Below, one piece after another: positions 18 through 23,778 of a DNA stretch of 23,795 bases. The first letter of the stretch is position 1. Every line of letters begins with the position of its first letter. The position numbers were made by a program, and so were the translations under genes. Origin of the DNA: an uncultured Deinococcales bacterium (GTDB lineage: Bacteria; Deinococcota; Deinococci; Deinococcales; JAAFIG01); contig CAXTTL010000048.1 in the NCBI GenBank assembly GCA_964247135.1, positions 1 to 23,795 of the forward strand, in the 5' to 3' direction. Under the pieces are notes generated by a model. The model made no database searches and was not told the DNA's origin. It saw only the letters and a program-made list of their open reading frames with translations.

Positions 18-827
18 ATGAAAAAACGAAACGATGCCCTGCTGGCGTTTTTTGGGCTGACCTTTGCGATCACTTGGGGTCTGGCGCTCGTGTTGGTCTT
101 GTTTCCTGTGACCATCAAAGCGCTGTTCGGTGCAGTCTCGGTGTCCAACCCCTTGTTTATTGTGGCGGTGGCAGGACCCACCATTGCCGCCACAATCTTG
201 ACGCTCACTCGAGAGGGTTGGGCTGGCTTGCGAGGGCTGTACAGCCGTTTGGTTCAATGGCGTTTTGGTCTGCAATGGTACGCGCTGGTGCTGCTCGGCA
301 TTCCGTTGTCGATGTTCGCCATCAGTCGAATCTCGAGTGTCATAATCAATTATGACCTCAGCACGCCAACCTTGATGATGCTGCATTTGTTGAACGAATT
401 GATCTTGGGTCCTATGGGTGAAGAATTGGGTTGGCGTGGTTTTGCCTTGCCACGAATGCTCGAGCGTTACAATCCGCTCTTGGCGGCTGTATTGCTTGGC
501 AGCATTTGGGGAGCGTGGCACTTGCCCTCGTTTTTCTTGTCAGGCTTGCCGCAAAGCCAACTTGCCATTCCCACGTTTTTGCTTGGTGCGTTGTGTCTGT
601 CAATCGTTTCAACCTGGTTGTTTTTGCACACAGGTCGTAGCGTTCTGGCAACCGTGTTGTTTCACTTTGCCATTAACGCTTCCATGAACGTTTTTGGTGT
701 GGCGTTTTCAGCCTTTACCATCGCAGCCGCGTGTGTGGCGCTGCTGGTGGTTGTTCTTGATCGCAACATCAATTGGTTTGCACCTGGGCAACCTCGAGCA
801 AGGTTGAACGTTCAAACCAATCCTTGA
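18..827 (+). CDS. CPBP family (CAAX/Abi) intramembrane glutamic endopeptidase
   Basis: Hydrophobic multi-TM protein with the CPBP motifs EELGWRG, WGAWHLP and FHFAIN. GGAGG at 6-10 favours ATG 18 as the start. Confidence 0.9.
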   Translation: MKKRNDALLAFFGLTFAITWGLALVLVLFPVTIKALFGAVSVSNPLFIVAVAGPTIAATILTLTREGWAGLRGLYSRLVQWRFGLQWYALVLLGIPLSMFAISRISSVIINYDLSTPTLMMLHLLNELILGPMGEELGWRGFALPRMLERYNPLLAAVLLGSIWGAWHLPSFFLSGLPQSQLAIPTFLLGALCLSIVSTWLFLHTGRSVLATVLFHFAINASMNVFGVAFSAFTIAAACVALLVVVLDRNINWFAPGQPRARLNVQTNP

Positions 828-866
828 TCGAGCCTGAGATGTGATGAAGCTTGTAGCAGCAAGAAA

Positions 867-1676
867 GTGAAGCAACCCATGAATCAACTGGCAGGAACTT
901 CTGAAATTCCACAATACAGTTTGGCAAAAATCCTCCTCGTATGGGCAGCCGCAACCTTCCCAATGGCAATTTTGGGATGGGTGGTGACTCCAGCCCTTGC
1001 ACACGACCCAAACAATCCAGGTTTTGAAAAACTTGCCATACTGACGCTCGGATTGATCTGGCAATTTATTTTGGTCATGATCTTGTGCTACCAAGAAACG
1101 GGCAACCTCGCCTGGTCAACAATCCGAGAACGTCTGTGGCTCAATACACCGCGAACTCCGAAAACCCGAGAACCGCGTCGGCGTTTGTGGTGGTGGCTTG
1201 TACCGATCATCGTTTTAACGGCATTTTACGAATTTCAAATTGCTGGGGTATTCGACAAGATTTGGGTTGGAATCTTCCCATTTCTGACCGAACCACGCGG
1301 TTTTGACCTTGGCAGTTTACTCGAGACACCACAAGCCAAAGCAAAGCTGGTTGGTCACTGGGGCGTTTTGCTGCTCTTTGTGGTCAATGCCGTGTTCAAT
1401 ACCGTTTTGGGCGAAGAGCTTGTGTTTCGTGGGCTGCTTTTGCCGCGAATGGCAAGGGTCTTTGGAAAATGGGACTGGGCAATGAATGGAATTCTGTTTG
1501 GTTTGTATCATTTGCATCAACCCTGGGGGATTCTCAGCGCCGCCATCGAGGGCATGTTGCTCTTGGCGCTGCCCAGCCGATACTTTCGCAGTTCCTGGTT
1601 GGGCATCATCGTTCATTCTGGGCAAAGTGTTTATTTTGCAATCCTGATTTTGGGGTTGGTGCTTGGAATGGCATAG
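867..1676 (+). CDS. CPBP family intramembrane endopeptidase (second, divergent paralogue)
   Basis: Motifs EELVFRG, FGLYHLH and VHSGQS in a multi-TM protein. The start could be GTG 867 or ATG 879. Confidence 0.85.
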   Translation: MKQPMNQLAGTSEIPQYSLAKILLVWAAATFPMAILGWVVTPALAHDPNNPGFEKLAILTLGLIWQFILVMILCYQETGNLAWSTIRERLWLNTPRTPKTREPRRRLWWWLVPIIVLTAFYEFQIAGVFDKIWVGIFPFLTEPRGFDLGSLLETPQAKAKLVGHWGVLLLFVVNAVFNTVLGEELVFRGLLLPRMARVFGKWDWAMNGILFGLYHLHQPWGILSAAIEGMLLLALPSRYFRSSWLGIIVHSGQSVYFAILILGLVLGMA

Positions 1677-1749
1677 CGACACAAGCGCTGTCTTGTCAGG
1701 TTTCAATGCTTGGTTTTCAGCCTGATATGTGCAGGCTTCAAGGTTCAAT

Positions 1750-3951
1750 TCAAATCAACCCTTGTTCAAGCGCTTGCCTGGTGGCTGCGGCTCGAGTGGC
1801 AACGTTTAATTTTGAGAAAATCGAACGAAGGTGCGTGTGAACGGTGCTGCCCGACATGCCCAATTCTGATGCAATTTTCTTGTTGGTTTTGCCATCTGCC
1901 AGCAACTTTATGACCTCGAGTTCGCGTGGTGTCAGGTCGCTTAAGGTATCACGGGCTTTGGACGCAGTCTGGTTCCGATTGACCTGGGCAATGCCCAGTT
2001 GGTGTTCGTGAACCAGTTTTTGAGCGCCAATCAATCGAGCAATCTCTATGCCAGCCGTAAAATGCTCAAGTGCTTGACTGAAGTTATTTTCGTCAAGCTC
2101 AAGCCAACCCAAGTACAACAATGCCTGACTTTCCAATGGACGGGCTTTTGCGTTTTGCGCTTGGACAAGACTCAACTCGAGCAATTGACGTGATCGTTGA
2201 TGATTTCTCAAAAGTCGTTCGGCGTTTCCAAAATTTGCTTGCCCCAATGCCATCAAGTGTGGTGGGAGATCAGCAACATACTCGAGCGCGAGTTCAAAGG
2301 TTTGTCGTGCTTCAAGCAATTTATTTGCGGTTGTAAGAATTCGACCCAGCAAATTCAGGTTGGCAAAAAATTGCAAGTTGTCCTCTGGGGTTTTCTGATT
2401 GACCGTGATCAAATTTAAACTGGTCAGACTTTGGCGTATCAGGTTTTCTGCTTGTTCATGGTTTTGGGTGTTGAGTTCAATCTCAGCCAACATCATCAGC
2501 GCTCTGGCAAGCAATTGATGGTTCGTTGTTTGATGATTGCTTGTTAATAAGGTCTTTTCAACGTGCTGACGGGCAGCAAAGTCATCGCCTTGTCTGAGGG
2601 CAAAAGTGCCAGCCAATAGCAACACTTCGTGAAAACGCAAATCGTCTTTTGAAAGTTTGATGAGCAGGTTTTCCAAAATACTGCGAGCTTCAGCCAGAAA
2701 ACCACGGATTTGCCAGTGGTAATGTTCCGCCGAAATAAAATCCCACGCCCAGTCAAAAAACCTGTTTTCAATACACCACCGTAAGGCTTGGTCAATGTTG
2801 TCGTGTTCAAGCCCAAGTATCTCGAGGTAAGCTGCTTGTTCGGCGCTTTCAAGTAACTGTGCCGCTTTTTTGACAACACTCAAAGCGTATTCAACATGGG
2901 TTTTTTGAGCCGTCTCGAGTTCACCTGCCAATTTCAGTTTCTCGAGTGCGTATTCACGTACCGATTCGAGCAATAAAAATCGTGCTGGTTGACTGTCTTT
3001 GCTGGTTTCGACCAGGCTGTTTTCGACCAAAACTGTCACATCTTCCAAAACCTCTGGGTTGCCGTTGATGATTTCGGCAGCTTCAAGGCTAAAGCCACCA
3101 CAAAACACACCCAAACGCATCAACAACTGCTGGTGTGCTGGCTGAAGCAGGTTAAAACTCCAATCGAGCGTTGCGCGTAAACCACGTTGGCGTTCGGGCA
3201 AATCTCTTGCACCGCTCGAGAGAATGTTCAACGGTTGGTTTAGCATCTCGAGCAAAACTTGGGGGCTGAACATGCGCAACCGTGCGGCTGCAAGTTCAAT
3301 TGCCAGGGGCGAACCCACCAATTTTCGAGTCATTTCAGCGACCGCAAAAGCGTTATCGGCATCCAATTTAAAATCTGGTCTGATGGCTTTGGCTCGAGCC
3401 AGCAACAACTGCACCGAAGACACGTTTTGCAAGCCATCCAGGCTGGTTTTTGCAGGGGCTGGCTCGAGTCCAGAAATTGGAAATTCGTGTTCGCCAGCCA
3501 GTCGCAACGGTGCGCGACTGGTTGTCAACATTTTCAAATCCTTGGCACTTCTGAGCTTGGCAACCACGTTTGAAGCCGCCTCGAGTACATGCTCGAGGTT
3601 ATCAAGCACCAGCAGCATTTGGCGCTCACTTAAAAACCAGGCGATACTTTCGAGCGCATCGCCTTGCCAATCTTGCAAACCCAATTCTTGGGCTATCTTG
3701 CTGGCAATCAAAGCCCCGTCTTGAATCGGGGCGAGTGAAACAAACACCACACCATCACGAAATTGTCCTAAAGCTGCTTGCGCCACCGCCAAGGCGAGCC
3801 GTGTTTTGCCGTTCCCTCCCGCGCCAATCAAGGTCAGTAAAAAAACCTCGTCGCGCTCGAGCAACTCGAGCACTTGCGCGATTTCTCGTTCGCGTCCAAA
3901 CAATCTGGTGGCAGGAACTGGCAGAACTGGATGGTCGGCAGCTACGGTCAT
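1750..3951 (-). CDS. STAND/NB-ARC-type ATPase - TPR - LuxR-HTH transcriptional regulator
   Basis: LFGRERE, Walker A GAGGNGKT, Walker B LLVLDNLE, TTSR, GSPLAIELAA, helical TPR-like repeats, and a C-terminal LuxR HTH (LTPRELEVIKLLADGKTNKKIA...TVHTHLRSIFSKL). Confidence 0.9.
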   Translation of the reverse strand: MTVAADHPVLPVPATRLFGREREIAQVLELLERDEVFLLTLIGAGGNGKTRLALAVAQAALGQFRDGVVFVSLAPIQDGALIASKIAQELGLQDWQGDALESIAWFLSERQMLLVLDNLEHVLEAASNVVAKLRSAKDLKMLTTSRAPLRLAGEHEFPISGLEPAPAKTSLDGLQNVSSVQLLLARAKAIRPDFKLDADNAFAVAEMTRKLVGSPLAIELAAARLRMFSPQVLLEMLNQPLNILSSGARDLPERQRGLRATLDWSFNLLQPAHQQLLMRLGVFCGGFSLEAAEIINGNPEVLEDVTVLVENSLVETSKDSQPARFLLLESVREYALEKLKLAGELETAQKTHVEYALSVVKKAAQLLESAEQAAYLEILGLEHDNIDQALRWCIENRFFDWAWDFISAEHYHWQIRGFLAEARSILENLLIKLSKDDLRFHEVLLLAGTFALRQGDDFAARQHVEKTLLTSNHQTTNHQLLARALMMLAEIELNTQNHEQAENLIRQSLTSLNLITVNQKTPEDNLQFFANLNLLGRILTTANKLLEARQTFELALEYVADLPPHLMALGQANFGNAERLLRNHQRSRQLLELSLVQAQNAKARPLESQALLYLGWLELDENNFSQALEHFTAGIEIARLIGAQKLVHEHQLGIAQVNRNQTASKARDTLSDLTPRELEVIKLLADGKTNKKIASELGMSGSTVHTHLRSIFSKLNVATRAAATRQALEQGLI

Positions 3952-4042
3952 GACTTCAATCCTCGAGCTTTAGATTATCGCTTTGGCGCAAATCATGTGA
4001 AGTTCTTCCAAGTTTTTGGCAATCTGACGTAGAATCAAACCC

Positions 4043-4150
4043 ATGAAGCACCAACCCGCAAAACTCGAGCTTCCAGGGCATCACCTGCGCTCGGGTTTTG
4101 TGTTTTCTTCCCCTGCGGGGGATATTTTGATTTTGGGCTTGAAGCCTTAA
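4043..4150 (+). CDS. Putative 35-aa leader peptide upstream of serS (MKHQPAKLELPGHHLRSGFVFSSPAGDILILGLKP)
   Basis: ATG lies 7 nt after TAGAAT (4030-4035), the same leaderless geometry seen for other genes here. The ORF is open to TAA 4148-4150 and is followed by a terminator-like hairpin. Confidence 0.45.
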   Translation: MKHQPAKLELPGHHLRSGFVFSSPAGDILILGLKP

Positions 4151-4171
4151 CCAATTGCCATAACCCATCTT

Positions 4172-4197
4172 GGGGCGCATGGTGCGCCTTTGTTTTT
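4172..4197 (+). terminator. Intrinsic terminator/attenuator-like hairpin in the serS leader
   Basis: GGCGCA-TGG-TGCGCC stem (extendable by G-U pairs) followed by TTTGTTTTT, directly before the serS RBS AAGGAG. Confidence 0.55.
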
Positions 4198-4213
4198 GAA
4201 GGAGAACCCAGAA

Positions 4214-5497
4214 ATGCTCGACATTAAATTTATTCGTGAAAACCCCGATACCGTGAAAAAAGCGATTCTTGAGAAAGCTACAAAATTGGATTTGGATACG
4301 CTGCTCGAGTTGGATGCAAAAATCATGGGTTTGCGCAAAGAAACCGAGGAAGTGCAAGCCGACGCCAACCGTGTGGCAAAAGAAATTCCCAAAGCCGAAG
4401 CCAGCGAACGCCCTGGCATGGTCGCCAAGGGTAAGGAACTGAAAACCAAACTGACCGATCTCGAGCCATCACTACGAAATCTCGAGGCAGAATTGCGGGA
4501 TTTGATGCTGCAAGTGCCGCAGATTCCGTGGGCTGGAGCGCCAGTGGGCGCAGATGAAAGTTTCAACCTCGAGATTAAAAAAGTTGGGGTGCCTCGAGTC
4601 TTTGATTTTGAGCCGCTCGACCATGTGGCATTGATCGAGAAAAACGCTTGGGGCGAGTTGGAGCGCATCTCGAGGATTTCGGGAACGCGGTCGTATGCTT
4701 TAAAAGGCGACCTGGCGGTCTACGAGCAAGCACTTTTAAGGTTTGCGTTTGACCAGATGATTGCGGCGGGCTTCACCGCCATGACCGTGCCGAGTTACGC
4801 TCGAGAGGAGGTTTTTACGGCGCATGGACAGTTTCCGGCGGCTCGAGATCAGGTCTACGAGATGGAAGGCTCAGAATTGTTCTTGTCTGGCACTGCCGAA
4901 GTGCTGCTGAACAGTTTGCACGCTGGCGAAATTTTAAGCGAAGATGATCTGGCGGCGGCTTATGTTGCCATCAGCCCGTGCTTCCGTGCCGAGGCTGGTG
5001 CGGCGGGCAAGGACACCAGGGGTTTGATTCGCGTGCATCAATTCAACAAGGTCGAACAATATGTGCTGTGCAAAGCCGACCCGCTCGAGTCGGAAATGTG
5101 GTTCGATAAGCTGCTAGGCAATGCCGAAAGTTTGCTCCAAGACCTCGAGCTTCCGTACCGTTTGCTCGAGACCAGCACGGGCGACATGGGTACGGGCAAA
5201 GTGCGCATGATTGACCTCGAGAGTTGGGTTCCGAGCGAAAGTCGCTACCGCGAAACGCATTCTTGCAGTGCGCTTCACGACTGGCAGGCGCGGCGTGCGA
5301 ACCTGCGTTACCGCGATGCGGACGGCAAAGTGCGTCATGCCTTCACGTTGAACAACACCGCGCTGGCAACCCCAAGAATTCTGGTGATGCTGCTCGAGAA
5401 CCATCAAAACCCTGATGGCACGGTCAACATTCCAAGTGCAGTTCAGCCGTACATGAATGGCAAGACCAAACTCGAGGCGACCAAAAAACGTGCTTGA
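4214..5497 (+). CDS. serS: Serine--tRNA ligase
   Basis: N-terminus MLDIKFIRENPD with a coiled-coil arm; class II motifs GTAEV, FRAEAGAAGKDTRGLIRVHQFNKVEQ, ETHSCS and NNTALATPR. RBS AAGGAG 4199-4204 selects ATG 4214. Confidence 0.97.
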   Translation: MLDIKFIRENPDTVKKAILEKATKLDLDTLLELDAKIMGLRKETEEVQADANRVAKEIPKAEASERPGMVAKGKELKTKLTDLEPSLRNLEAELRDLMLQVPQIPWAGAPVGADESFNLEIKKVGVPRVFDFEPLDHVALIEKNAWGELERISRISGTRSYALKGDLAVYEQALLRFAFDQMIAAGFTAMTVPSYAREEVFTAHGQFPAARDQVYEMEGSELFLSGTAEVLLNSLHAGEILSEDDLAAAYVAISPCFRAEAGAAGKDTRGLIRVHQFNKVEQYVLCKADPLESEMWFDKLLGNAESLLQDLELPYRLLETSTGDMGTGKVRMIDLESWVPSESRYRETHSCSALHDWQARRANLRYRDADGKVRHAFTLNNTALATPRILVMLLENHQNPDGTVNIPSAVQPYMNGKTKLEATKKRA

Positions 5498-5503
5498 GGT
5501 TTT

Positions 5504-6150
<647 letters not shown>

Positions 6151-6189
6151 AACACGGTTGAGAAGTCTGGCTCGAGTTAAACTTTAGTC

Positions 6190-7068
6190 GTGAGTTATTT
6201 GATTTCTGGAATGGCGGCAAACAACACGTTGCGGGTCATGGCGGCAGACACGACGGGCATTGTCGAGACGGCTCGAATCAAACACGAGACGAGCGCCACA
6301 GCCACCGCCGCCCTCGGTCGGACGTTGACGGGATCGTTGTTGCTGGCGCAAGTCTTGACCAAACGCGACCATGACCGTGTGACCTTGCGGGTTCAGGGTG
6401 ATGGTCCAATCGGTTGGGTCGTCTGCGAGGGCAGCAAAGACGGCATCACGCGGGGTTATGTCAAACACCCCGATGCCGACCTGCCCGCTCGAGAATCCGA
6501 CGGCAAGCTCGACGTTGGTGCTCTCATCGGTTTGAACGGCGATTTTGCGGTCACACGCTTGCTCGAGAACACCGAACCCTACACGGGCAGCGTCGAATTG
6601 GTGTCTGCCGAAATTGCCGAGGACATGGCAACCTATTTGGCGCACTCAGAACAAATTCCGAGTGCGGTCATGCTTGGCGTGCATGTGAATGCCAGGGGCG
6701 TGACCCATGCGGGCGGTTTGCTGGTGCAAGCCATGCCAGGGGCAGCGGAAGCCACGCTTGCCAAACTCGAGGACAACATCAAAAACATGGGGACGTTCAC
6801 CAATGCCATGCGGCTCGAGAATGGTTTGTTGGGCGCGATCAATCAGGCGCTTTCGGGGCTGGAGTTTGAAGCCAACCCGAACGCCCTCGAGCTTGTATGG
6901 CAGTGCCGTTGCAGCCGTGACAAGGCGCTGCAATCGCTGACTTTTTTTGGTGACGTCGAACGTGAGGAAATGATCGAGAACGGCGGACAAGAGGTCGTGT
7001 GTCACTGGTGCAACGAGAAATACCTGATCACACCCGACGAACTCTCCAAGCTCGAGTTGCAAGCTTAA
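6190..7068 (+). CDS. hslO: Hsp33 redox-regulated chaperone
   Basis: ATAALGRTL, GDGPIG, EPYTGSVELVSAEIAED, HSEQIPS, and the zinc centre CRCS...CHWC. TAAACT 6178-6183 lies 6 nt before GTG. Confidence 0.95.
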   Translation: MSYLISGMAANNTLRVMAADTTGIVETARIKHETSATATAALGRTLTGSLLLAQVLTKRDHDRVTLRVQGDGPIGWVVCEGSKDGITRGYVKHPDADLPARESDGKLDVGALIGLNGDFAVTRLLENTEPYTGSVELVSAEIAEDMATYLAHSEQIPSAVMLGVHVNARGVTHAGGLLVQAMPGAAEATLAKLEDNIKNMGTFTNAMRLENGLLGAINQALSGLEFEANPNALELVWQCRCSRDKALQSLTFFGDVEREEMIENGGQEVVCHWCNEKYLITPDELSKLELQA

Positions 7069-7418
7069 TGCAAGCCTCAAAAATACTGCTGGCGGTCATC
7101 ATGGCGGCGGCTGGCGTGATTCATTTCGTCAACCCGCAAATTTACGTTGCCATCATGCCCAAGGACCTGCCGTGGCATCTGGCGCTCGTGTACATTTCGG
7201 GGTTTCTCGAGCTTCTGTTTGGTGTTGGGTTGTTGACTGGGTTCTCGAGTTTTGCGGCTTGGGGCTTGATCGCCTTGTTTGTTGCGGTGTTTCCCGCAAA
7301 CTTGAACATGGCGTTTCATCCAGAACTTGTGCCCCAAATTCCGAGGCTGTTGTTGTGGCTTCGGTTGCCACTTCAAGCCGTACTGATTTGGTGGGCTTGG
7401 CAGCTTACAAAAATTTGA
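7068..7418 (+). CDS. DoxX-like small membrane protein
   Basis: AGVIHF, LVYISGFLE, AVFPANLNMA and LRLPLQ are typical of this family. The start overlaps the hslO stop (TAATG), implying translational coupling. Confidence 0.8.
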   Translation: MQASKILLAVIMAAAGVIHFVNPQIYVAIMPKDLPWHLALVYISGFLELLFGVGLLTGFSSFAAWGLIALFVAVFPANLNMAFHPELVPQIPRLLLWLRLPLQAVLIWWAWQLTKI

Positions 7419-7423
7419 GCCAT

Positions 7424-7446
7424 AAAAAACGCGCCCGTTTAGGCGC
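7424..7446 (-). terminator. Terminator-like hairpin oriented for minus-strand transcription
   Basis: The minus strand reads GCGCC-TAAACG-GGCGC-GTTTTTT. Confidence 0.45.
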
Positions 7447-7457
7447 TGATGGGGTAT

Positions 7458-7486
7458 ATTGTAACACCGTATTCGGTATTCGTCAA
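7458..7486 (-). promoter_or_regulatory. Near-consensus sigma70/SigA promoter
   Basis: The minus strand reads TTGACG (7486-7481), a 17-nt spacer ending TGT, then TACAAT (7463-7458). Confidence 0.6.
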
Positions 7487-7562
7487 GACTATGCACTCGA
7501 GTCGTGCTGCACGGGTCGCTCGAGTTTGAAATTTGAGAGCGTTTTCGTTTAAACTCGAGCAC

Positions 7563-8021
7563 ATGAAATTACTGGCTTTGCTCACGTGTCTTCTGATCTT
7601 CTCTGGTTTCGCCGATGCTCGAGTGCGAAGAGCGGGTACAACGCAATTGCAAACCTTGATCAATCAAGCTCGAGCTTCGGGGGTTCGTTGCGCGGGTGGT
7701 GGCGGGGTGAGGCTGGCTCAACTTGGAGGCAATCATTTGCTGGCGCTTGCCGCTCGAGGTCATGCCGCCAACATGAGCCGTTACGGTTTCGTCTCGCATT
7801 ATTTTCGAGGTGTTGGACCGCGCACTCGAGTTCCACGGGCAGGGTATACATTCTCGAGGATGTCCGAAATTATTTTTAAGGGTTCGGGCGGAGCAAGCCG
7901 TGCGCTGCGTTGGTGGTTGCGCAGTCCCGTGCATTGCCGTGCGATCATGAACTCGTACTACCGCGAAATTGGCACGGCGGTTGTGGGCAATGCTTTCGTG
8001 GTGGTCATGGCGGTTCATTAA
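7563..8021 (+). CDS. Secreted CAP (SCP/Tpx/Ag5) domain protein
   Basis: Signal peptide MKLLALLTCLLIFSGFADA; motifs LINQARA, AARGHAANM, FVSH and WLRSPVHCRAIMN..YREIG. TAAACT 7550-7555 lies 7 nt before ATG. Confidence 0.88.
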   Translation: MKLLALLTCLLIFSGFADARVRRAGTTQLQTLINQARASGVRCAGGGGVRLAQLGGNHLLALAARGHAANMSRYGFVSHYFRGVGPRTRVPRAGYTFSRMSEIIFKGSGGASRALRWWLRSPVHCRAIMNSYYREIGTAVVGNAFVVVMAVH

Positions 8022-8053
8022 ACTCGAGCTTGATTGCCGTGCAGCCTCAAAGG

Positions 8054-8341
8054 CTACGACAGATTTTCGCCAGCCACTTTATAGGTATCCGAGAGGGGTT
8101 GACCGATGCTGTGTGCAAACCAGATGCGGATTGCCGCTTTCGCATCGGCTGCATCCATTTCACCTCGCTCAACTTGCTCGAGCAGCGGCATGAGGGGCTG
8201 AATGGTTTGCAAAAACTTTGCGAGTTGGATTTCCATGAAGGCGCTCATGTTCATGTCCATCGCCTGAAAAACCTGGCGTGACTTTCGATAAATGTCAGGG
8301 TCTATCGTCAGGTTGACTCGGGCTTTGGTCATTTTTCCCAT
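8054..8341 (-). CDS. Small ribbon-helix-helix (CopG/CcdA-like) DNA-binding protein
   Basis: N-terminal KARVNLTIDPDIYRK...MNMSAFMEIQL fits an RHH beta-alpha-alpha pattern. Minus-strand TACGCT lies 6 nt before ATG 8341; an alternative start is 8332. Confidence 0.6.
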   Translation of the reverse strand: MGKMTKARVNLTIDPDIYRKSRQVFQAMDMNMSAFMEIQLAKFLQTIQPLMPLLEQVERGEMDAADAKAAIRIWFAHSIGQPLSDTYKVAGENLS

Positions 8342-8345
8342 TCCA

Positions 8346-8385: not shown

Positions 8386-8463
8386 CTTACAAATTGACCT
8401 TCAATAGCTTAAATCTGGTCTGATCAACCTTAAAGACTGCATCTCTCGAGCCTCGAGGTTTGA

Positions 8464-13864: not shown

Positions 13865-16800
13865 ATGCCCAATAACCCAAATTATCTGTACCCCGCAGGT
13901 TCGGTCATAATGCACTCACCGTTGATGCTCGAGAACTCGGACATGTACGGTTATTTTGCCAAAGGCAATTTAAAGAACTTGCAAGCCAGCATTGATGGCA
14001 CGCTAAACACCACGGCTGGCAGCAAACTGAACTTTCAAGTCATCTCGCCGTATGTGCTTTTAACCTTTACCAATGTTGGTCATGCGTACTCGCAAAACCC
14101 AGTTGACCAAGCCAAAGGCTGGATTCAAGAAACCGACATCATCACCTGGATCATGGTCGGGCAGATGGCTGCAAACGGCAAACTCGAGCGAATTTTCTTT
14201 TACCCGTTTCATATCTTCGTCAACGACACGATGGCACTCATCAACGGACGCGAGTTGTTCGGCTATCCCAAGTACGACTGCCAGTACACCATGCCAGGCG
14301 TTGGCGGCAGTCAAACCGATTGCACCCTCAGCGTTAAAGGTTTTCAACCGTTCTCGAGCGACACCGAAATTGCTTGGCATCCGCTGCTCGAGGTCAACGC
14401 CGTCACCAGCAACAAACCGCACAAAATCATTAACGGCGGTTGGCTCGAGTTTTTAAAAGAGGTTTTTGAGATTTTAAAATCAATACCCGACTTTTTAAAC
14501 ATGGACGTGGCAGGTTGGGAAGATGTGATTTCGATGTTGCTCGTGCCGAGGGTCGATCAAATTTTCTTAAAGCAATTTCCAGATTCGGCGGGCGTCAAAG
14601 CTGTTTATCAAAGTGTGCTGACCGCACCTGCAATGGTTGATAAAATTCACAGTGTCAAATTGTTGGGTGACGATTACAGCCTCAATCTCCATCAGGTCGC
14701 CAGCTTTCCGCTCGCCGATTCGCTCGGGCTGACGCTCGGCGTGCAAAACGTCTTGCTGCCATTCAACCTCAACTTTGATTTTTCAGTCCCACCAGGCGAG
14801 GTTCTGGCAGACAACTCGAGCCTCCCGCCCCAGAAGGTGGCGATTCTGGGCGGTGGCGTGGGTTCGATGACCTCAGCGTATTACCTCAGCAGTCAACCAG
14901 GCTGGCAAGAAAAATACGACATCACCGTGTACCAAATGGGTTGGCGTTTGGGCGGCAAGGGCGCGAGTGGACGCAACGCCGCCTTCGGGCAACGCATCGA
15001 AGAGCACGGTTTGCACATTTGGTTTGGCTTTTACGACAACGCCTTTAAAATGCTGCGCGAGGCTTACGACACGCTGGCTCGACCCGCAGGCGCTCCACTC
15101 GCCACCTGGCAAGACGCCTTCAAACCACAAGATTACATCGTGCTGACCGAATGGATTAACGAGCAGTGGAAAATCTGGAACCTCGAGTTTCCGCACATGC
15201 CAGGTACGCCAGGTGACGGCACAGAGAAACTCAGCATGTTCGACAGCGCCGAAGCTTTGCTGACTTGGGTTCGAGGTTGGATTCATGACGCGCACCGCCT
15301 GAGCGCCACCAAACCACCAATCTCGAGCGAACCGCACGAAAATTGGTTGCAACGCCTTGCCAGCACTTTAGAGCGCGACGTTGAAGATGTGGTGGTTGAC
15401 GTTCGGGTTGTGATTGACGGACTGACTGGCGCGTTCAAGAACCTCAAAACCCACGAAGACCATTCGATGATTTCTGCCAGCTTGCGCGGCGTCAAAAAAT
15501 GGTTGATGCACCTTTTGGACCAGAAACTCGAGGACAACGACGAACTGCGCCGCGTGTTTATTTGCGCCGACCTGGGCATCACGGTGTTGATTGGAATGCT
15601 CGAGGATGGCGTGTTCGAGCACGGTTTTGACGTGATGAACAACATTGACTTTAGAGACTGGCTGACCAAGTACGGCGCGAACGTTCAATTTTCGGTGGAC
15701 AGCGCCCCAGTTCGCGGTTTTTACGATCTGGTGTTTGCCTTTGAAGGCGGCGATTTGAACAAACCCAACATCGAAGCGGGCACGTTGCTTCGCGCCATGA
15801 TGCTGATTGGCATTGCTTACAAAGGCAGCATCATGTTCAAAATGCAGGCAGGCATGGGCGACACGATTTTCAGCCCGATGTACCAAGTTTTAAAAGAGCG
15901 CGGCGTGAAATTCAAGTTCTTCCATAAAGTTGAAGAACTCATCCCAGACGATACGGGAATTGCCAAAATTCGCCTGACCGAACAAGTCCAAATCTCGAGC
16001 GGCAACGCGCAATATCAACCTTTTGTTTACGTTAACGGTCTGGCATGTTGGGGACACCAACCCAATTACGACCAAATTCTGCCAGCCGAAGCCGAACTCT
16101 TGCAGCAGAACAACATCAACCTCGAGTCGAGTTGGAGCAACTGGGCAGACGTCTACCAAAGCGCGTTCGGCTCTCCCCTGCCCAGTGTCACGCTCGAGCG
16201 TGGCAAAGATTTTGACTTGGTGATTTTTGGGATTTCCAAAGGTTCATTGACCGCGTTGTGCCCGCAATTGCTGGCAAAAAGTTCTGCCATGACCAAAATG
16301 AACAACGCCGTGCAAACCGTGGCGACCCAAGCCTATCAAGTCTGGCTGACCAAAGACCTTGCCGACCTGGGCTGGACGAACCAACCGAACGGGCAAGAAC
16401 CCGTCTTGAGCGGCTACACCGAACCGTTTGACACTTGGGCGCCAATGGATCAATTGCTGGTGCGCGAAGACTGGAAAGCGGGAGCGCAAAACCCAAAAAA
16501 CGTCTCGTACTTTTGCAGCGTGCTGCCGATCTCGAGCTTCCCGCCGTTTAGCGATTACGGCTTCCCCGCCAAAATGTCAGAAATGGTCAAGCAAGGCGCG
16601 ATCAACCAACTCGAGCATCACATGCAAGCGTTGATGCCCAATGCCGTGACGGTTGACGGATTTCAATGGGATTGGTTGACCGACACCAGCAGCGCGACGG
16701 GTAAAACCAGGTTTGACAGCCAATACTGGCGAGCCAACATTGACCCAAGCGAACAATACGTCATGAGTGTGGTTGACAGCACCGCACAGAGGCTCGAGAC

Positions 16801-16957
16801 GGACGGGAGTGGCTTTGCGAACTTGTACTTGACGGGTGACTGGATCAAAACCAACATCAACGCGGGGTGCGTTGAGGCTGCGGTCATGGCGGGAATGCAA
16901 ACCTCGAGAGCGATTTCAGGATTTCCGAAGGTGATTCAAGGCGAAAAAGATTTTTAG
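13865..16957 (+). CDS. Fusion of an acetoacetate-decarboxylase-like domain and an FAD/NAD(P)-binding oxidoreductase (amine oxidase/carotene desaturase-like)
   Basis: N-domain has GRELFGYPK (ADC-family Schiff-base Lys). From about aa 323: KVAILGGGVG, RLGGKGASGR, EEHGLHIWFGFY, and C-terminal NLYLTGDW...GCVEAAVMAG. TATACT 13853-13858 lies 6 nt before ATG. Confidence 0.8.
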   Translation: MPNNPNYLYPAGSVIMHSPLMLENSDMYGYFAKGNLKNLQASIDGTLNTTAGSKLNFQVISPYVLLTFTNVGHAYSQNPVDQAKGWIQETDIITWIMVGQMAANGKLERIFFYPFHIFVNDTMALINGRELFGYPKYDCQYTMPGVGGSQTDCTLSVKGFQPFSSDTEIAWHPLLEVNAVTSNKPHKIINGGWLEFLKEVFEILKSIPDFLNMDVAGWEDVISMLLVPRVDQIFLKQFPDSAGVKAVYQSVLTAPAMVDKIHSVKLLGDDYSLNLHQVASFPLADSLGLTLGVQNVLLPFNLNFDFSVPPGEVLADNSSLPPQKVAILGGGVGSMTSAYYLSSQPGWQEKYDITVYQMGWRLGGKGASGRNAAFGQRIEEHGLHIWFGFYDNAFKMLREAYDTLARPAGAPLATWQDAFKPQDYIVLTEWINEQWKIWNLEFPHMPGTPGDGTEKLSMFDSAEALLTWVRGWIHDAHRLSATKPPISSEPHENWLQRLASTLERDVEDVVVDVRVVIDGLTGAFKNLKTHEDHSMISASLRGVKKWLMHLLDQKLEDNDELRRVFICADLGITVLIGMLEDGVFEHGFDVMNNIDFRDWLTKYGANVQFSVDSAPVRGFYDLVFAFEGGDLNKPNIEAGTLLRAMMLIGIAYKGSIMFKMQAGMGDTIFSPMYQVLKERGVKFKFFHKVEELIPDDTGIAKIRLTEQVQISSGNAQYQPFVYVNGLACWGHQPNYDQILPAEAELLQQNNINLESSWSNWADVYQSAFGSPLPSVTLERGKDFDLVIFGISKGSLTALCPQLLAKSSAMTKMNNAVQTVATQAYQVWLTKDLADLGWTNQPNGQEPVLSGYTEPFDTWAPMDQLLVREDWKAGAQNPKNVSYFCSVLPISSFPPFSDYGFPAKMSEMVKQGAINQLEHHMQALMPNAVTVDGFQWDWLTDTSSATGKTRFDSQYWRANIDPSEQYVMSVVDSTAQRLETDGSGFANLYLTGDWIKTNINAGCVEAAVMAGMQTSRAISGFPKVIQGEKDF

Positions 16958-17805: not shown

Positions 17806-17827
17806 TCATTCTCCTTAAACTCGGTCA

Positions 17828-17844
17828 TTATGTTACTATCATAA
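17828..17844. promoter_or_regulatory. RDRM-like 17-bp palindrome (candidate DdrO operator)
   Basis: TTATGTTACTATCATAA has the TTATG-N7-CATAA geometry of Deinococcus radiation/desiccation response motifs and overlaps a TGn-TACTAT extended -10. Confidence 0.55.
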
Positions 17845-17872
17845 CAATTTTTGAATCCATCACAGGAGCAAT

Positions 17873-18823
17873 ATGGAAACCCAAACCTGGTATCTCGAGT
17901 TGAGTGAAGAAAACGGCAGTCACAAATTCTATGAAGTCACGCTCGAGAATACAGATTTAACGATTCGATACGGGCGCATTGGAGATGCGGGGCAATCACA
18001 AAAGAAAACGTTTGAAACACCAGAAAAGGCGTTAGTGGAAGCCGAAAAAAAATTAGCAGCCAAACGTAAAAGCGGCTATCATGATGCAGAATTGGGTCAG
18101 AGCGCCAAAAAAGCTCTGGCTGCAAAGCCGAAAATCAACAAACTTCAATGCGTGCGTTTTAAAGAAGTCAATTCTCCTATCACAGCACCGGTCACAAAAT
18201 TTGGTGGACAACCCGTTTGGCTTGAAGAACCAAAATGGCCATTAAGTGCGCACAACGGAAAACCCATTCCATTCCTGTGTCAAGTCAAGCTCGAGCCTGA
18301 ATTGTTTGAAACAATTGATGCCACAATGGCTTATATTTTCAGAGACGGAGATGGCGATGATATGGCAGCCGTCTTGCAACCAGGCAATGTGGTCGCAAGG
18401 CATGATCTTTATGGTGCAGAAGGAGATTTTCCGCTCTTCAGCGATCAAGAAAAAGGTCCGACTTTAACAAAAAGTGTTCAAGAGAATTCAACGTATAAAC
18501 GCATAGAAATAGAATGTTCTGTCGATCTCAAGGCAGGACAAGATTCGCCATACGCATATGATAACGAGCGCGAAAATTGGTCTGAAGAAAAAGGAAATCG
18601 GTATTACAGCAAAACCATTGGTTACAAAATCGGTGGCAGTCCATGTAACTTTGATGATGAGTTCATGCCTGAAAAGCTTCATGAGCAATGGAATTTACTG
18701 CTTCAAATGCGGCAAGCAGAAGAAGATGAAACCGAAGCACCATTTTCAGATATGTTCGCTGAGGTCATGTGCTTTTGGTTTATCTCAAACGATGGTAAAC
18801 AACTTTCTTTTGCAACAATGTAA
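17873..18823 (+). CDS. WGR-domain protein with C-terminal YwqG/DUF1963-like domain
   Basis: N-terminal YLELSEENGSHKFYEV...IRYGRIG...KRKSGY (WGR). C-terminal TKFGGQPVW..WP..PFLCQ and KIGGSP..WNLLLQ (DUF1963-like). RBS AGGAG. Confidence 0.8.
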   Translation: METQTWYLELSEENGSHKFYEVTLENTDLTIRYGRIGDAGQSQKKTFETPEKALVEAEKKLAAKRKSGYHDAELGQSAKKALAAKPKINKLQCVRFKEVNSPITAPVTKFGGQPVWLEEPKWPLSAHNGKPIPFLCQVKLEPELFETIDATMAYIFRDGDGDDMAAVLQPGNVVARHDLYGAEGDFPLFSDQEKGPTLTKSVQENSTYKRIEIECSVDLKAGQDSPYAYDNERENWSEEKGNRYYSKTIGYKIGGSPCNFDDEFMPEKLHEQWNLLLQMRQAEEDETEAPFSDMFAEVMCFWFISNDGKQLSFATM

Positions 18824-18828
18824 AACTG

Positions 18829-18860
18829 AAAGGGGGTCATGGTTGCCTATAACTCCCTTT
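18829..18860. terminator. Probable bidirectional terminator between convergent genes
   Basis: AAAGGGGGTCATGG-TTGC-CTATAACTCCCTTT forms a stem of about 14 bp with G-U pairs and one mismatch, with A/T-rich flanks. Confidence 0.55.
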
Positions 18861-18880
18861 AAAATTTCTCGACTCGAGTT

Positions 18881-20095: not shown

Positions 20096-20265
20096 AATTT
20101 CCTCCAAAAAAGTTTGAGATTGCGTTCGTGCTGCCGTGCAAGATTATCATGTCGCTCGAGGTTCAGAAAATTTATCGGGACGCCATAAAATGTAGCCTCT
20201 CGAGGATCAGGTTTTATTGCCAATACTTAACGTCAATGTTGAGCCTTGAACGGTATACTTTTGAC

Positions 20266-21159
20266 GTGAAGAAATTACTTTCATTTGTGGTGTTTGCCCT
20301 GTGCTCGGGTTCTGCGCTGGCGACAGACATGCTGTCTTTTATCGCCCCAGAAGGTACGATCACCAAATACCATGCGGCAACCAACATTGCGTTTACGATT
20401 CCCAAGTTCACCTCGAGCACGTCCAATGGTTCGACTGCCGACGTGCGAATTGGCAACAGGATTCAGCAAAACCTGGATGGTATCAAATTGGAAATCAGTG
20501 ATGATTTTACCGATACCGTGGGTACGTTTGCCGACAACCCAGATTTGATGGTCAGCACCGAAGGCAACCACAAAGTGAACACGTCCGCTCTTGGCGCGAC
20601 CACCACGGTTGAAGTTCCGTACCGTTCCGAAACCCTCTACCAATCTGATGGTACGGTTCAATTTGGCAAGTTTTTGTACGACACCAGTTTTTTGAAAGAC
20701 CCGTACACGTCCATTTTTCAAGCCCAACAAAGCATTGAAGAAAAAAATCGTAACGCCCGCATCGCGCGTTTGTACGGTTTGGACCTCGAGTTGGGACAGG
20801 ACGTGTCCCTGCCCCCCGTGAAAGCTTTGGGAGAGCTTGATCCTGATGTCATTTTGACTTCGACCTACAAATTTGCGGGTCGGGATGCCGACAACCATTT
20901 TCTGTTTGATGTCAGCACACAATCATCTTTGGTTTCCAAAACCATTAACCAGTACGGAACCAAAATTTTCTTCAAACTGATGCCAGCCGTCGGAACGGGG
21001 AAAATCAGTTTCCTCGAGGACGGTCGTTTGCTGCACGAAGAATATGCCCAAGTGACCAATGTGGTTTACACCTATATTTTTGTGGTTGGCAAAATTACTT
21101 CAACGTACCGTTTTGAAGGCACGATCAGTCTTGAACGTCACACAGACGTGGTTGAATAA
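20266..21159 (+). CDS. Secreted beta-rich hypothetical protein
   Basis: Signal peptide VKKLLSFVVFALCSGSALA; T/S/F/Y-rich strand-like pattern. TATACT 20254-20259 lies 6 nt before GTG 20266. Confidence 0.7.
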   Translation: MKKLLSFVVFALCSGSALATDMLSFIAPEGTITKYHAATNIAFTIPKFTSSTSNGSTADVRIGNRIQQNLDGIKLEISDDFTDTVGTFADNPDLMVSTEGNHKVNTSALGATTTVEVPYRSETLYQSDGTVQFGKFLYDTSFLKDPYTSIFQAQQSIEEKNRNARIARLYGLDLELGQDVSLPPVKALGELDPDVILTSTYKFAGRDADNHFLFDVSTQSSLVSKTINQYGTKIFFKLMPAVGTGKISFLEDGRLLHEEYAQVTNVVYTYIFVVGKITSTYRFEGTISLERHTDVVE

Positions 21160-21176
21160 ATCAAATTGCTCGAGTT

Positions 21177-21770
21177 TTAGATTCCGTATTTTTTCATGAT
21201 TTGGTTGAAGACTTGAAGGTTGAGAAACACCTCAGCATTCCAACCCGCTTCTCGAGCCGCAGCCACATTCTCGAGTGAGTCGTCCCAGAAGAGGACTTCT
21301 GAAGCTGGAAGCTGGATTTTGTCTTTTACAGCTTTGTAAAACTCGAGGTCTGGCTTGCGAAAACCGAGGTCACTCGAGGCGAAAACACCGTCAAGCGTCT
21401 TCAAAAATCCCATCTCGAGCTTCATGTAATTGGCGCGATTGCGCTCTTGGTTTGTGCCAAGGTAACACGGGATTCCGTTGGTTCGTAAAACTTGGATTCG
21501 CTCGAGCAGTGCGGTGTCGATGTGATGTTCATGTTCAAGCCATTGCCGAACAAAAGTTGTGGCATCTACTGGCACATTCCAACGCTCGAGATACTTTGGC
21601 AAAATGTCCAACAGCTCGAGTTCGCCCGTGGTGCAACGCTTGAACTGCCCATGAATCAATGCCATAAATTCTTGTTTTGGAATGCCGAACAGTTCAAACG
21701 CTCGAGAGACGAAAAACGTTTTTGGGCGCACGATCACACCGTCAGCGTCGAAGATAATGGCTTTTATCAT
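21177..21770 (-). CDS. HAD-superfamily hydrolase (subfamily IA)
   Basis: Motif I IIFDADGV, motif II GTN, motif III RKPD and motif IV FWDDSLENVAAA. The start is 21770 or 21779. Confidence 0.9.
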   Translation of the reverse strand: MIKAIIFDADGVIVRPKTFFVSRAFELFGIPKQEFMALIHGQFKRCTTGELELLDILPKYLERWNVPVDATTFVRQWLEHEHHIDTALLERIQVLRTNGIPCYLGTNQERNRANYMKLEMGFLKTLDGVFASSDLGFRKPDLEFYKAVKDKIQLPASEVLFWDDSLENVAAAREAGWNAEVFLNLQVFNQIMKKYGI

Positions 21771-21795
21771 CTCGAGCATCTTGACACGTTTATCG

Positions 21796-21812
21796 ATAGC
21801 CTTTAAGGCTAT
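21796..21812. promoter_or_regulatory. Perfect 8-1-8 palindrome in the HAD/YkgJ divergent promoter
   Basis: ATAGCCTT-T-AAGGCTAT lies between TTGACA (21781-21786) and TATGCT (21810-21815). Confidence 0.4.
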
Positions 21813-21826
21813 GCTGGAAAACACCA

Positions 21827-22567
21827 ATGCAAGTCTCCCCCATCAACCCAGATCAAGAAATTTTAACGGCTGTCGCTCGAGCGTACTCGAGTTTCAATCG
21901 TGACTCGAGTGCTTGGATTGAGGGTTTTACAGCCCGAGGCGGAAAAATTCACTGCCAGTCTGGGTGCTTTCACTGCTGCAATTTCCCGATTCGGGTCAGT
22001 CTTGCCGAAGCCCTGCTAACCGCTTCGCAATTGAGCCTCGAGCAGTTGGAAGCCATGAAATTCCACGCGCAAAACGTCCTCGAGAATGCGAAAACCGCCT
22101 CGAGTTGGGATGAATATTTTGCGCGTCATCGTGAAGAGGTGGGGTTCTGTCCGTTGCTTGACCGTGCAACTGGCGCTTGTGGGGCTTACGAGGCACGCCC
22201 CGGGCGTTGCCGCGATACCTTCAGCGCCCTGAGTGCCGATTACTGCAAGGTCGGCACGCTCGAGCATTTAAACCGCAACCAGCGTTTGGCGTACCAACGT
22301 GCCGTGAAAGCCAACCCCGCCACCGATGGACTCAGCCATTACGTCGCGCCGCTCGAAGATTTGGGTACAACCATCTGGGAGGTTGCCAGTCGTCAAATGC
22401 GGCAATCTTGGGGTTTGGAAATCTGGGGCGATTTTTGGGTGCTGACAACCCTGTCCCGAGATGACGCATTTATGGCGGCGGTTCGGGCTGGACAGGTCAA
22501 ATCTGCGTCCAGACGCGCCAAGATTCTGGGTTTGTGGCATCTCGAAATCGTGCAAATTGAGTCTTGA
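21827..22567 (+). CDS. YkgJ/UPF0153-family cysteine-cluster (Zn/Fe-S) protein
   Basis: CQSGCFHCC ... CPLLD...CGAYEARPGRCR. Confidence 0.88.
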   Translation: MQVSPINPDQEILTAVARAYSSFNRDSSAWIEGFTARGGKIHCQSGCFHCCNFPIRVSLAEALLTASQLSLEQLEAMKFHAQNVLENAKTASSWDEYFARHREEVGFCPLLDRATGACGAYEARPGRCRDTFSALSADYCKVGTLEHLNRNQRLAYQRAVKANPATDGLSHYVAPLEDLGTTIWEVASRQMRQSWGLEIWGDFWVLTTLSRDDAFMAAVRAGQVKSASRRAKILGLWHLEIVQIES

Positions 22568-22686
22568 GTTTTGAAGCAAGCTCAACCAGTTTCTTTGCAC
22601 AATCTTCGATTTCTTTCAGTCTTACCTTAGCGCTTGCCATTTACACTTCCATTATCTCGAGATTGCTCGAGTCTCAGGAGGTTTTT

Positions 22687-23778
22687 ATGGCTTTAGGAAC
22701 GTTTCAACGAACTCCGATTTCGACGCTCGAGTTTCCACGGTTTCAAAGCATTGGCGCGGCTTTGTTCTTGCTTGGCGTGTTCGCCACTTTTTTTGGTTTG
22801 GGTTGGGATGTGCAGTGGCACAACGACGTTGGTCCTGACACCTTCTGGACGTTACCGCACAGCATTTTGTACTTTGGCGCGGCGCTCAGCGGTTTTGCCT
22901 GTTTGACCGTGGTGCTCATTGGCACGTTCGCATCTCGGGAAACCCGCACTTTGCCAGGCATGGTCCCGATTTTGGGCGGCATGTTTTACGCCCCAATCGG
23001 TTTTATTGTCGGTGGTTTTGGCGCGGCAGGTTTTTTAAGTTTCGGGCTGTTCGACCAGTACTGGCACGCGTTATTCGGTTTTGATGTTTCGATCAGTTCG
23101 CCGCCGCACATGGGTTTGATTTTCAGTTACATCATGGCGGTCTCGGGTTGCGTGCTGGTGTTCGTTCGGGGACGCGAAACCCGAACAATGTCTTTTGTGG
23201 TTGCCACCGCGCTGGCGCTGGGTTTTACACTGCCATTCGTGCAAATGAACCTCTGGGAATTCAACCTCGAGATTCCAATGTTTTTGTTTCCAGCTTTATT
23301 TTTATCGCTTGGCATGTTGTTTGTGGCGTCCGTCAGCCGCAAGCCTTGGATGCTTTTTGTCATGACTTTGGTGTTTGCGGCGTTTCGTTATTTGTGCTGG
23401 TTTGCTTTTCCGATCATCACTTCAGGTTATGCCAGTGCCTTGGGTTTGGCTTTGCGCGATCAACCTTCAGACAACCCGATGATTCCGTACCTGATGCCAA
23501 TGTTGCTGCCCTTGGCGGGTTTGATCTCGAGTGGCGTGTTGGTTTTCGCCAAATCTCGAGGCTGGCGGGTGACTCCCAGTGTCTTGTTGGCTGGAGCTTT
23601 GGGAGCGCCACTGATGTACGTCGATTTGTTTCTTGGGCAGATTGTGACTGGCTTTCCGCTTATTTTGCTTGGTGCTGCCATTTTGGGTGCTCTGGGCGCT
23701 TGGTTGGGCTGGCAATTGGGTGTCGTGGCGCGTCATGCCAACGTCCAACTCGAGCAAGTTCAGGGGGTGCAATCGTGA
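22687..23778 (+). CDS. Polytopic membrane protein with two DxxWH...PH putative metal-binding motifs (PmoC/AmoC-like)
   Basis: About 9-10 hydrophobic segments; motifs WDVQWHNDVGPDTFWTLPH and FDQYWHALFGFDVSISSPPH. RBS AGGAGG precedes ATG 22687. Confidence 0.8.
   Translation: MALGTFQRTPISTLEFPRFQSIGAALFLLGVFATFFGLGWDVQWHNDVGPDTFWTLPHSILYFGAALSGFACLTVVLIGTFASRETRTLPGMVPILGGMFYAPIGFIVGGFGAAGFLSFGLFDQYWHALFGFDVSISSPPHMGLIFSYIMAVSGCVLVFVRGRETRTMSFVVATALALGFTLPFVQMNLWEFNLEIPMFLFPALFLSLGMLFVASVSRKPWMLFVMTLVFAAFRYLCWFAFPIITSGYASALGLALRDQPSDNPMIPYLMPMLLPLAGLISSGVLVFAKSRGWRVTPSVLLAGALGAPLMYVDLFLGQIVTGFPLILLGAAILGALGAWLGWQLGVVARHANVQLEQVQGVQS

Follow-up and report, generated by a model that had tools for sequence, protein, structure and literature searches.

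Dense iteration of the palindrome CTCGAG in the genomes of a Deinococcales family

The first highly iterated palindromes (HIPs) were described from cyanobacteria in 1993; what drives them is still debated, with a methylation ratchet, chromosome structure and DNA uptake all put forward. Here we describe the hexamer CTCGAG as a comparable element in an uncultured Deinococcales bacterium, starting from a stretch of 23,795 bp (contig C48; the window is this whole stretch). The contig is part of a 5.09-Mb assembly of 386 contigs with 84% completeness and 1.8% contamination, and the GC content was 52.6% for the genome and 51% for the window. The original prediction, made from the letters of the window alone, had called CTCGAG an HIP1-like palindrome highly iterated across the window, and the genome counts reported below confirm and extend it.

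The passages of Elhai (2015) on alternate HIPs list GGCGCC, GCsGC, GGGATCCC, rCCGGy and TCGATCGA, all cyanobacterial and present at 1,000-2,000 per Mb (PMC4390886). According to the relevant passages of Rodriguez-Cruz (2026), HIP1 raises transformation efficiency in two cyanobacteria in a methylation-dependent manner, and a role as an uptake signal is argued (PMC13756078). In the full-text literature, supplements apart, nothing was found that links CTCGAG to highly iterated palindromes, to genome over-representation or to Meiothermus.

CTCGAG resembles HIP1 (GCGATCGC) and the alternate HIPs in several respects. All are short, GC-containing perfect palindromes that are hyper-abundant in coding and non-coding DNA, spread by substitution without insertions or deletions (indels), are conserved above neutral and extend over whole lineages. 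Among the properties of the HIP class, a genome-wide excess, spread by substitution through coding and non-coding sequence and conservation beyond neutral were found for CTCGAG. The differences are also clear. CTCGAG belongs to another phylum, is a hexamer and not an octamer, and is absent from the alternates listed in the passages of Elhai; it reaches about 6,660 copies per Mb compared to the 1,000-2,000 given there (PMC4390886). It clearly affects the proteome, and no matching methyltransferase was found in the searches described below, whereas those passages give one for each HIP. CTCGAG is a second, independent case of a highly iterated palindrome, with a new word in a new phylum, denser than the first, visible in the proteome and with no evident methyltransferase.

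The DNA uptake sequences of Neisseria (DUS) and Pasteurellaceae (USS) form the second group for comparison. Like CTCGAG, they are words in genome-wide excess that build up through point mutations, influence which peptides are encoded and seldom occur in DNA of recent acquisition. With a length of 9-12 nt, no palindromic symmetry and about one copy per kb, uptake sequences differ from CTCGAG, a palindrome of six bases that reaches 6.7/kb and lacks an extended consensus. Experiments have demonstrated biased uptake of DUS and USS, whereas for CTCGAG it is a proposal.

Abundance and exactness of CTCGAG

The window contained 156 exact CTCGAG sites (6.6/kb), which ran from 208-213 to 23749-23754, and the site list and gene calls placed them on genes of both strands as well as between genes. 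In 100 dinucleotide-preserving shuffles of the window the mean was 3.2 sites and the maximum 7. The hand count of the original prediction, about 155 sites against about 6 expected, was thus nearly exact, and the zero-order expectation of about 6 is right at 51% GC. The enrichment had been put at roughly 25-fold; genome-wide, 33,925 sites (6.66/kb) were counted, 24.7 times the zero-order expectation, and CTCGAG ranked first among all hexamers by frequency. The density of contig C48 (6.56/kb) is close to the genome mean. CTCGAG reached at least 2.6/kb on all 386 contigs and at least eight sites in each of the 825 five-kb bins, and the excess was found again in independently assembled relatives, confirming that it is not limited to one contig.

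Gene calling by our own procedure, based on open reading frames (ORFs) and codon scores, gave 4,522 genes covering 86% of the genome. The density of CTCGAG was 6.57/kb in coding and 7.24/kb in non-coding DNA. All three codon frames were used, as had been proposed from the window, with 18,103 sites in frame CTC-GAG, 4,249 in frame xCT-CGA-Gxx and 6,612 in frame xxC-TCG-AGx. When synonymous codons were shuffled within each gene, so that the protein and the gene's own, already motif-inflated, codon usage were kept, ten shuffles gave 4,017 sites (SD 39) compared to 28,964 observed, a 7.1-fold excess. The excess was 15-fold in frame xCT-CGA-Gxx and 11-fold in frame xxC-TCG-AGx. In non-coding DNA, 4,902 sites were observed whereas 132 or 370 were expected from first-order and second-order Markov models, respectively. 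The enrichment therefore survives both the codon-preserving and the Markov nulls, and the abundance of CTCGAG is a DNA-level property and not an effect of codon usage.

The influence on codon choice is strong. Leu-Glu pairs were written as CTCGAG in 18,103 of 23,522 cases (77%), whereas outside this context CTC made up 15% of Leu codons and GAG 32% of Glu codons. The share of CGA among Arg codons was 82.5% in the motif context and 11-13% elsewhere, and that of TCG among Ser codons was 88% and 15-23%, respectively. Overall, 28,964 of the 47,245 peptide contexts offering a synonymous opportunity for CTCGAG (61%) were filled. The effect extends to the proteome itself: Leu-Glu was the most over-represented dipeptide, with an observed/expected ratio (O/E) of 2.35 compared to 1.01 for Glu-Leu, and the force on CTCGAG has added about 13,000 extra Leu-Glu dipeptides.

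The original prediction took the hexamer as the unit on the ground that its flanks vary, and the genome agrees with it. The flanks were nearly uninformative, the strongest preferences being for G at -1 (with C at +1), at 39%, and for A at -3 (with T at +3), at 37%. No extended conservation of the type seen in repetitive extragenic palindromes (REP) or miniature inverted-repeat transposable elements (MITE) was found around the sites genome-wide, where no flanking base exceeded a frequency of 0.39; such uninformative flanks rule out CTCGAG as a mobile, REP or MITE dispersed repeat. The 18 variants that differ from CTCGAG by one base had 22,412 copies together (O/E 0.08-1.74), with transitions the commonest (O/E 1.17-1.74). 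Since the one-base-off neighbours sit at ordinary levels, it is the exact hexamer that is read.

The arrangement of the sites was analyzed genome-wide. In an intergenic gap of the window, two CTCGAG lie 7 bp apart at 8445..8457 (CTCGAGNCTCGAG), starting at 8445 and 8452 as had been noted before. This spacing occurred 87 times in the genome, whereas a spacing of 6 bp never occurred because it would create GAGCTC. The pair correlation rose from 0.14 at a distance of 7 bp through 0.85 at 22 bp to reach 1.0 by 75 bp, indicating short-range repulsion, and no periodicity was detected beyond the 3-nt periodicity of coding DNA. Gaps of more than 500 bp without CTCGAG numbered 935 compared to 1,213 by exponential expectation. 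No origin-like clusters were found, the maximum being nine sites per 300 bp. The longest stretches free of CTCGAG, up to 2,644 bp, were mostly foreign-looking islands of 27-40% GC, and the contigs of lowest density (2.6-3.7/kb) often carried GGCC, which is almost absent elsewhere.

Conservation, turnover and spread of the sites

When the window was aligned to five genomes of the same genus (about 86% DNA identity), between 43 of 61 and 65 of 83 CTCGAG sites were conserved (70-80%), compared to about 41% expected from codon-position identities. Third codon positions were 83-90% identical inside the sites and 72-74% outside, and non-coding positions 92-98% and 79-83%, respectively, so that third-position and non-coding bases within CTCGAG evolve 2-4 times more slowly. 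Four or more genomes could be aligned at 71 positions, of which 31 were invariant and 40 variable. The variable ones included 11 singleton presences and 14 single absences, and gain and loss of CTCGAG therefore look balanced.

The gene serS (4190..5497, + strand), encoding seryl-tRNA synthetase (Pfam tRNA-synt_2b and Seryl_tRNA_N), carries 14 CTCGAG, the number given by the original prediction, mostly encoding Leu-Glu. In a codon alignment 13 of the 14 could be traced, and the variants differed by substitution with no indel at the site. Of these 13, 10-11 were common to the genus and two were common with another genus, whose serS had five CTCGAG sites of its own. Comparison with outgroups showed that the sites arise through synonymous changes and through I/V to L, A to S and similar replacements, which bears out the earlier suggestion that synonymous or conservative changes create them. 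Two sites in frame xCT-CGA-Gxx on the + strand (4800 and 4842, spanning 4800..4847) read CCAGGG in most genus relatives: each was CTCGAG in two of six genomes and CCAGGG in three, and the two words (Arg CGA and AGG) are three synonymous changes apart. The nearest relatives of the SerRS protein were metagenome-assembled genomes named 'Deinococcales bacterium' (91-95% identity), and a complete 5.09-Mb chromosome followed at 71%. The loci of serS relatives had 5-8 CTCGAG/kb in Deinococcales and none in the eight alphaproteobacterial loci checked (L007-L014).

Outside the gene calls, three sites predicted earlier at 7496, 7519 and 7554 (7496..7559) lie in or beside a dispersed repeat of about 100 bp (7415-7530). 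Site 7496 was conserved in four of five genus genomes and site 7519 in five of six, and site 7554 was present in one of five. The density thus persists although single sites come and go from genus to genus, as is likewise described for HIP1 and for uptake sequences; this indicates a weak genome-wide directional force on the exact hexamer.

All 19 genomes of the family, from five genera, were rich in CTCGAG, with 12,028-35,442 copies each (4.3-6.8/kb by rounded genome sizes). For GAGCTC, 16 of the genomes had 0-25 copies, and the remaining three had 114, 161 and 568. A further 120 genomes sampled the phylum outside the family. One large genus (63 genomes) had only 26-1,010 CTCGAG copies, and a second (g9; 23 genomes of about 2.1-2.5 Mb) had 1,455-2,537, about equal to GAGCTC. 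Three genera in the family of g9 carried 3,336-12,522 copies (1.4-3.4/kb) with 278-2,187 GAGCTC, a further Deinococcota family had 1.7-2.9/kb, and one genome of another family had 6,990 CTCGAG compared to 62 GAGCTC. Enrichment is therefore graded across the phylum, most extreme in this Deinococcales family and without excess in two large genera. The original prediction that related Deinococcota such as Meiothermus might carry the motif holds for other genera of the phylum at 1.4-3.4/kb, whether or not these are Meiothermus. Most of the searched genomes of the genera near 3/kb were 99-100% complete, and given this completeness some may come from cultured strains.

A permissive scan of IMG/VR with three spaced motifs returned at least 120 loci, of which five records were followed up. 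Among the matches listed, most were high-GC phages in which GAGCTC was equally common. Three records (L292, L230 and L327; G140, G141 and G143) had 2.5-3.3 CTCGAG/kb and 0-4 GAGCTC, the counts of CTCGAG and GAGCTC being 186 and 0 in 72.9 kb, 100 and 1 in 36.9 kb, and 56 and 4 in 17.0 kb. In the 36 kb of G140 examined, 16 other palindromes were wholly absent, much like in a family genome. Judged by oligonucleotide likeness alone, the three are possible phages of this lineage or of a relative within Deinococcota.

Avoided palindromes, methyltransferases and other features

Many other palindromes are nearly absent from this genome. GAGCTC had no copy (nor any in the window, 1-23795), and GGGCCC had 1, CGGCCG 3, AGGCCT 4, CGTACG 5, GGATCC 7, CCGCGG 11 and CAGCTG 15, where 1,100-1,700 copies of each were expected. 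GGCC had 380 copies compared to 24,481 expected (O/E 0.016), and the O/E of CTAG was 0.07. Since 36 of the 64 six-base palindromes had an O/E below 0.2, CTCGAG does invert the avoidance of restriction-type palindromes within one genome, as had been predicted.

Six Type II methyltransferase-nuclease pairs were found outside the window, on contigs C14, C178, C36, C189, C207 and C320. The nucleases beside the methyltransferases belonged to the Pfam families NgoPII, Eco29kI, PvuII, MvaI/BcnI, NotI-like (weak) and SacI-like (weak, above the cut-off), whose specificities we take to be, in the same order, GGCC, CCGCGG, CAGCTG, CCWGG/CCSGG, GCGGCCGC and GAGCTC. NCBIfam gave no name for any of the eight nuclease candidates. 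The resident restriction-modification pairs match avoided words and not CTCGAG, and the enrichment of CTCGAG is independent of them. A resident Type II restriction target was accordingly rejected as the identity of CTCGAG, which is 25-fold enriched among pairs of other specificities.

Two of the remaining methyltransferases were MmeI-like. The others were a Type I system, an enzyme of 1,499 aa on a contig that looks foreign and one of 466 aa on C4. The 466-aa enzyme was interrupted by stop codons in two relatives (G005 and G012) and not found in most others, and for the C207/C4 enzyme an orthologue was found only in G009. Restriction-modification systems were sporadic among the relatives. The SacI-like pair occurred in seven of the 19 family genomes, as two alleles, and C5 methyltransferases were sporadic and paired with nuclease families for GGCC or CCGCGG.

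Methyltransferases were compared between this genome and five family genomes with a completeness of 91% or more, including one assembled as a single contig, using the Pfam families PF00145, PF01555, PF07669, PF02384 and PF02086 (C5, N4/N6, Eco57I-type, N6_Mtase and D12). Each match lay beside a nuclease of some other family, belonged to the Type I or MmeI-like kind, or occurred sporadically. No orthologue group in these five families spanned all six genomes. The one-contig genome (G011) had no PF01555 match and another (G008) no PF00145 match, and the PF07669 matches of about 500 aa were Type I HsdM. A proteome scan for [DNS]PP[YFWH] returned 45 proteins, 19 of them with a motif of the S-adenosylmethionine (SAM) type, and among the ten checked by Pfam there was no DNA methyltransferase. 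The XhoI nuclease family PF04555 had no match in this genome, but this negative carries little weight, as the model matched in no control genome either. The orphan XhoI/PaeR7I-type methyltransferase of the original prediction thus found no candidate in the 84%-complete genome and none common to the six family genomes. The specificity of such enzymes does not show in their sequence. With the genome at this completeness, a CTCGAG methyltransferase that is novel or was left unassembled may nevertheless exist. Two sequencing runs shared 6-7% of sampled words; they hold contigs only and are useless for base modification.

XhoI/PaeR7I-type systems recognise the same word, CTCGAG, but restriction targets are normally avoided, whereas here the word is enriched and no such enzyme was found. 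In Escherichia coli, sequence-specific repair by Vsr likewise shifts oligonucleotide frequencies toward the site of a methyltransferase (Dcm), but the effect is small and needs both Vsr and a C5 methyltransferase. Vsr was found in none of the 19 family genomes and MutH in two; a product of Vsr-type very-short-patch repair was therefore rejected, the C5 methyltransferases also being sporadic. According to the relevant passages of Blow (2016), Nocardia has an orphan methyltransferase for CTCGAG, and the motif is concentrated there around the origin of replication (PMC4752239). In the present genome CTCGAG is dispersed.

Several further features were noted in the window. A dispersed repeat of about 65 bp, hairpin-like in that it matches on both strands, lies directly after the serS stop codon (5498-5568). 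Its copies, dozens of them with 80-89% identity, are spread over this genome and all five relatives from the genus. The repeat at 7415-7530, of which there are also dozens of copies in the genus, lies inside a stretch of about 1 kb without a called gene (7066-8056); no Rfam match was found in the window, including this stretch. Pfam identified a 733-aa STAND/NB-ARC-TPR-LuxR regulator (1750-3951, - strand), a 1,030-aa protein with NAD-binding/FAD oxidoreductase and acetoacetate-decarboxylase-like domains (13865-16957, + strand) and a WGR-DUF1963 protein (17873-18823, + strand), and matched no family for the ORFs at 20128-21159 and 22564-23778. Elsewhere in the genome, CTCGAG lay within eight of 66 predicted tRNAs; in tRNA-Glu, for instance, it sits where the T-stem meets the acceptor. 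A cluster of predicted tRNAs for Leu, Thr and Glu (C157:3282-3938, outside the window) carried it in stems.

Explanations for the enrichment and their meaning

We tentatively favour, with a rough probability of 0.4, a CTCGAG-reading protein that acts in DNA exchange or repair and gives motif-bearing alleles a small fixation advantage. Sites would arise by single-base steps at any place in the genome, and their retention would slightly outweigh their loss. The force would act on double-stranded DNA and read exact CTCGAG. A candidate dimeric protein, whose existence and link to DNA exchange we infer, would recognise the hexamer in natural transformation, recombination or gene conversion, and motif-bearing alleles would be preferentially taken up, integrated or restored. 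The idea corresponds to the 'molecular drive' put forward for uptake sequences, which is now under discussion for HIP1 of cyanobacteria as well. The reading is supported by the scarcity of CTCGAG in foreign-looking islands, by the presence of ComEC and DprA (each in 18 of the 19 family genomes), by the viral enrichment and by the reports on HIP1 and transformation.

With 33,925 sites that can each be lost along 18 paths, and 22,412 one-off variants that can each become a site along one, gains would have to fix about 27 times more readily than losses, and a scaled coefficient of about 3.3 (e^3.3) would suffice for equilibrium, a rough estimate that assumes equal mutation rates and ignores protein constraint. 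These assumptions weigh against the favoured reading, and so do several other points. No reader protein was identified in this analysis, and ComEC and DprA also occurred in all 12 genomes of other families, including CTCGAG-poor genera; being found everywhere searched, they do not discriminate. Uptake sequences, longer, non-palindromic and sparser, fit by analogy only. Selection and biased conversion are indistinguishable with these data. Should the viral records prove to be phages of this lineage, a force on all cell DNA, or mimicry of the host, would account for their enrichment better than a bias in uptake.

Such a force on all cell DNA would be supplied by a methylation ratchet, in which a CTCGAG methyltransferase that is unrecognised, unassembled or replaced between lineages would act with methyl-directed or context-specific mismatch repair to restore or create sites. 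It would explain the enrichment in the putative phages, and has precedents in the matching methyltransferase for every alternate HIP in the passages of Elhai (PMC4390886), in the Nocardia orphan enzyme (PMC4752239) and in the methylated CTCGAG and TCGA of a single network of hosts and phages from a hot spring, of a phylum not named in the relevant passages (10.64898/2026.06.24.734251). The incompleteness of the genome leaves room for the enzyme, and transitions are the commonest one-off variants. We nevertheless consider the ratchet rather doubtful, as no methyltransferase group was shared by the six family genomes, two of these had no match for one of the families, the motif scan added no candidate, Vsr and MutH were absent or rare, and C-to-T one-off variants were not depleted, contrary to the prediction for Vsr-type repair. 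It is unlikely that CTCGAG is a chromosome-organising signal, bound by an abundant nucleoid protein and selected for even coverage. The short-range repulsion, the deficit of long gaps, the lack of clusters and the similar coding and non-coding densities agree with this explanation, and a structural role of HIP1 was proposed by Xu (2018), as summarised in passages of PMC13756078. Repulsion can also be explained by hairpin avoidance or protein constraint, though, and there was no periodicity; individual sites are replaced from one genus to the next, the analysis yielded no candidate protein, and phages have no obvious need for such sites.

We give a still smaller chance to a self-DNA defence tag, in which a nuclease or other defence would spare CTCGAG-dense DNA in the manner of Chi and RecBCD, and host and phages would be selected to carry the word. 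The pressure from restriction appears intense, given the avoided palindromes and the many sporadic restriction-modification systems, and foreign islands are without CTCGAG while the putative phages are rich in it. Against this, no candidate gene was found and the viral hosts were assigned by oligonucleotide likeness alone. We know of no such system for a palindromic hexamer. Chi sites are asymmetric and strand-oriented, which counts against the comparison, whereas CTCGAG is self-complementary and orientation is impossible. That the abundance is an assembly artefact, or a side effect of composition, codon usage or proteins rich in Leu-Glu, has a negligible probability. The predominance of the CTC-GAG frame (62% of coding sites) would suit it, and the near equality of CTCGAG and GAGCTC in g9 is consistent with a shared cause in composition or codon usage. 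It is refuted by the 7-fold excess over the synonymous shuffle, by the Markov excess in non-coding DNA, where density is at least that of coding DNA, and by recurrence in 19 separately assembled family genomes, and the mirror word GAGCTC, of identical composition, had 0 copies. Primase or topoisomerase sites, quasi-palindrome correction and a by-product of GAGCTC avoidance were considered and dropped, as was a role at the RNA level, though this last keeps a slight chance, since the palindrome appears in transcripts of either strand.

CTCGAG is about three to six times as dense as the cyanobacterial HIPs, and with no matching methyltransferase evident it weakens the necessity of a cognate methyltransferase for HIPs. 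Genera with none, with about 3/kb and with about 6.7/kb form a comparative series within one phylum. Deinococcota include naturally transformable members, and because the genera at 3/kb may include cultured strains, the question could be taken to the bench. For this lineage, CTCGAG together with the missing GAGCTC, GGCC and other palindromes is a strong signature for binning, for assigning phages to hosts and for spotting foreign DNA, and the palindrome profile predicts which restriction enzymes cut its DNA. Extending the favoured reading, CTCGAG could conceivably be an ancient, methyltransferase-independent tag of self-DNA in Deinococcota outside the two large genera, read by a candidate dimeric protein in transformation, recombination or defence, near saturation in one family with a site every 150 bp, and copied by phages, although we think this broad form doubtful. 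If it were true, no denser sequence tag than CTCGAG would be known from a cellular genome, and it would offer a second, tractable model for the 30-year-old problem of HIP1.

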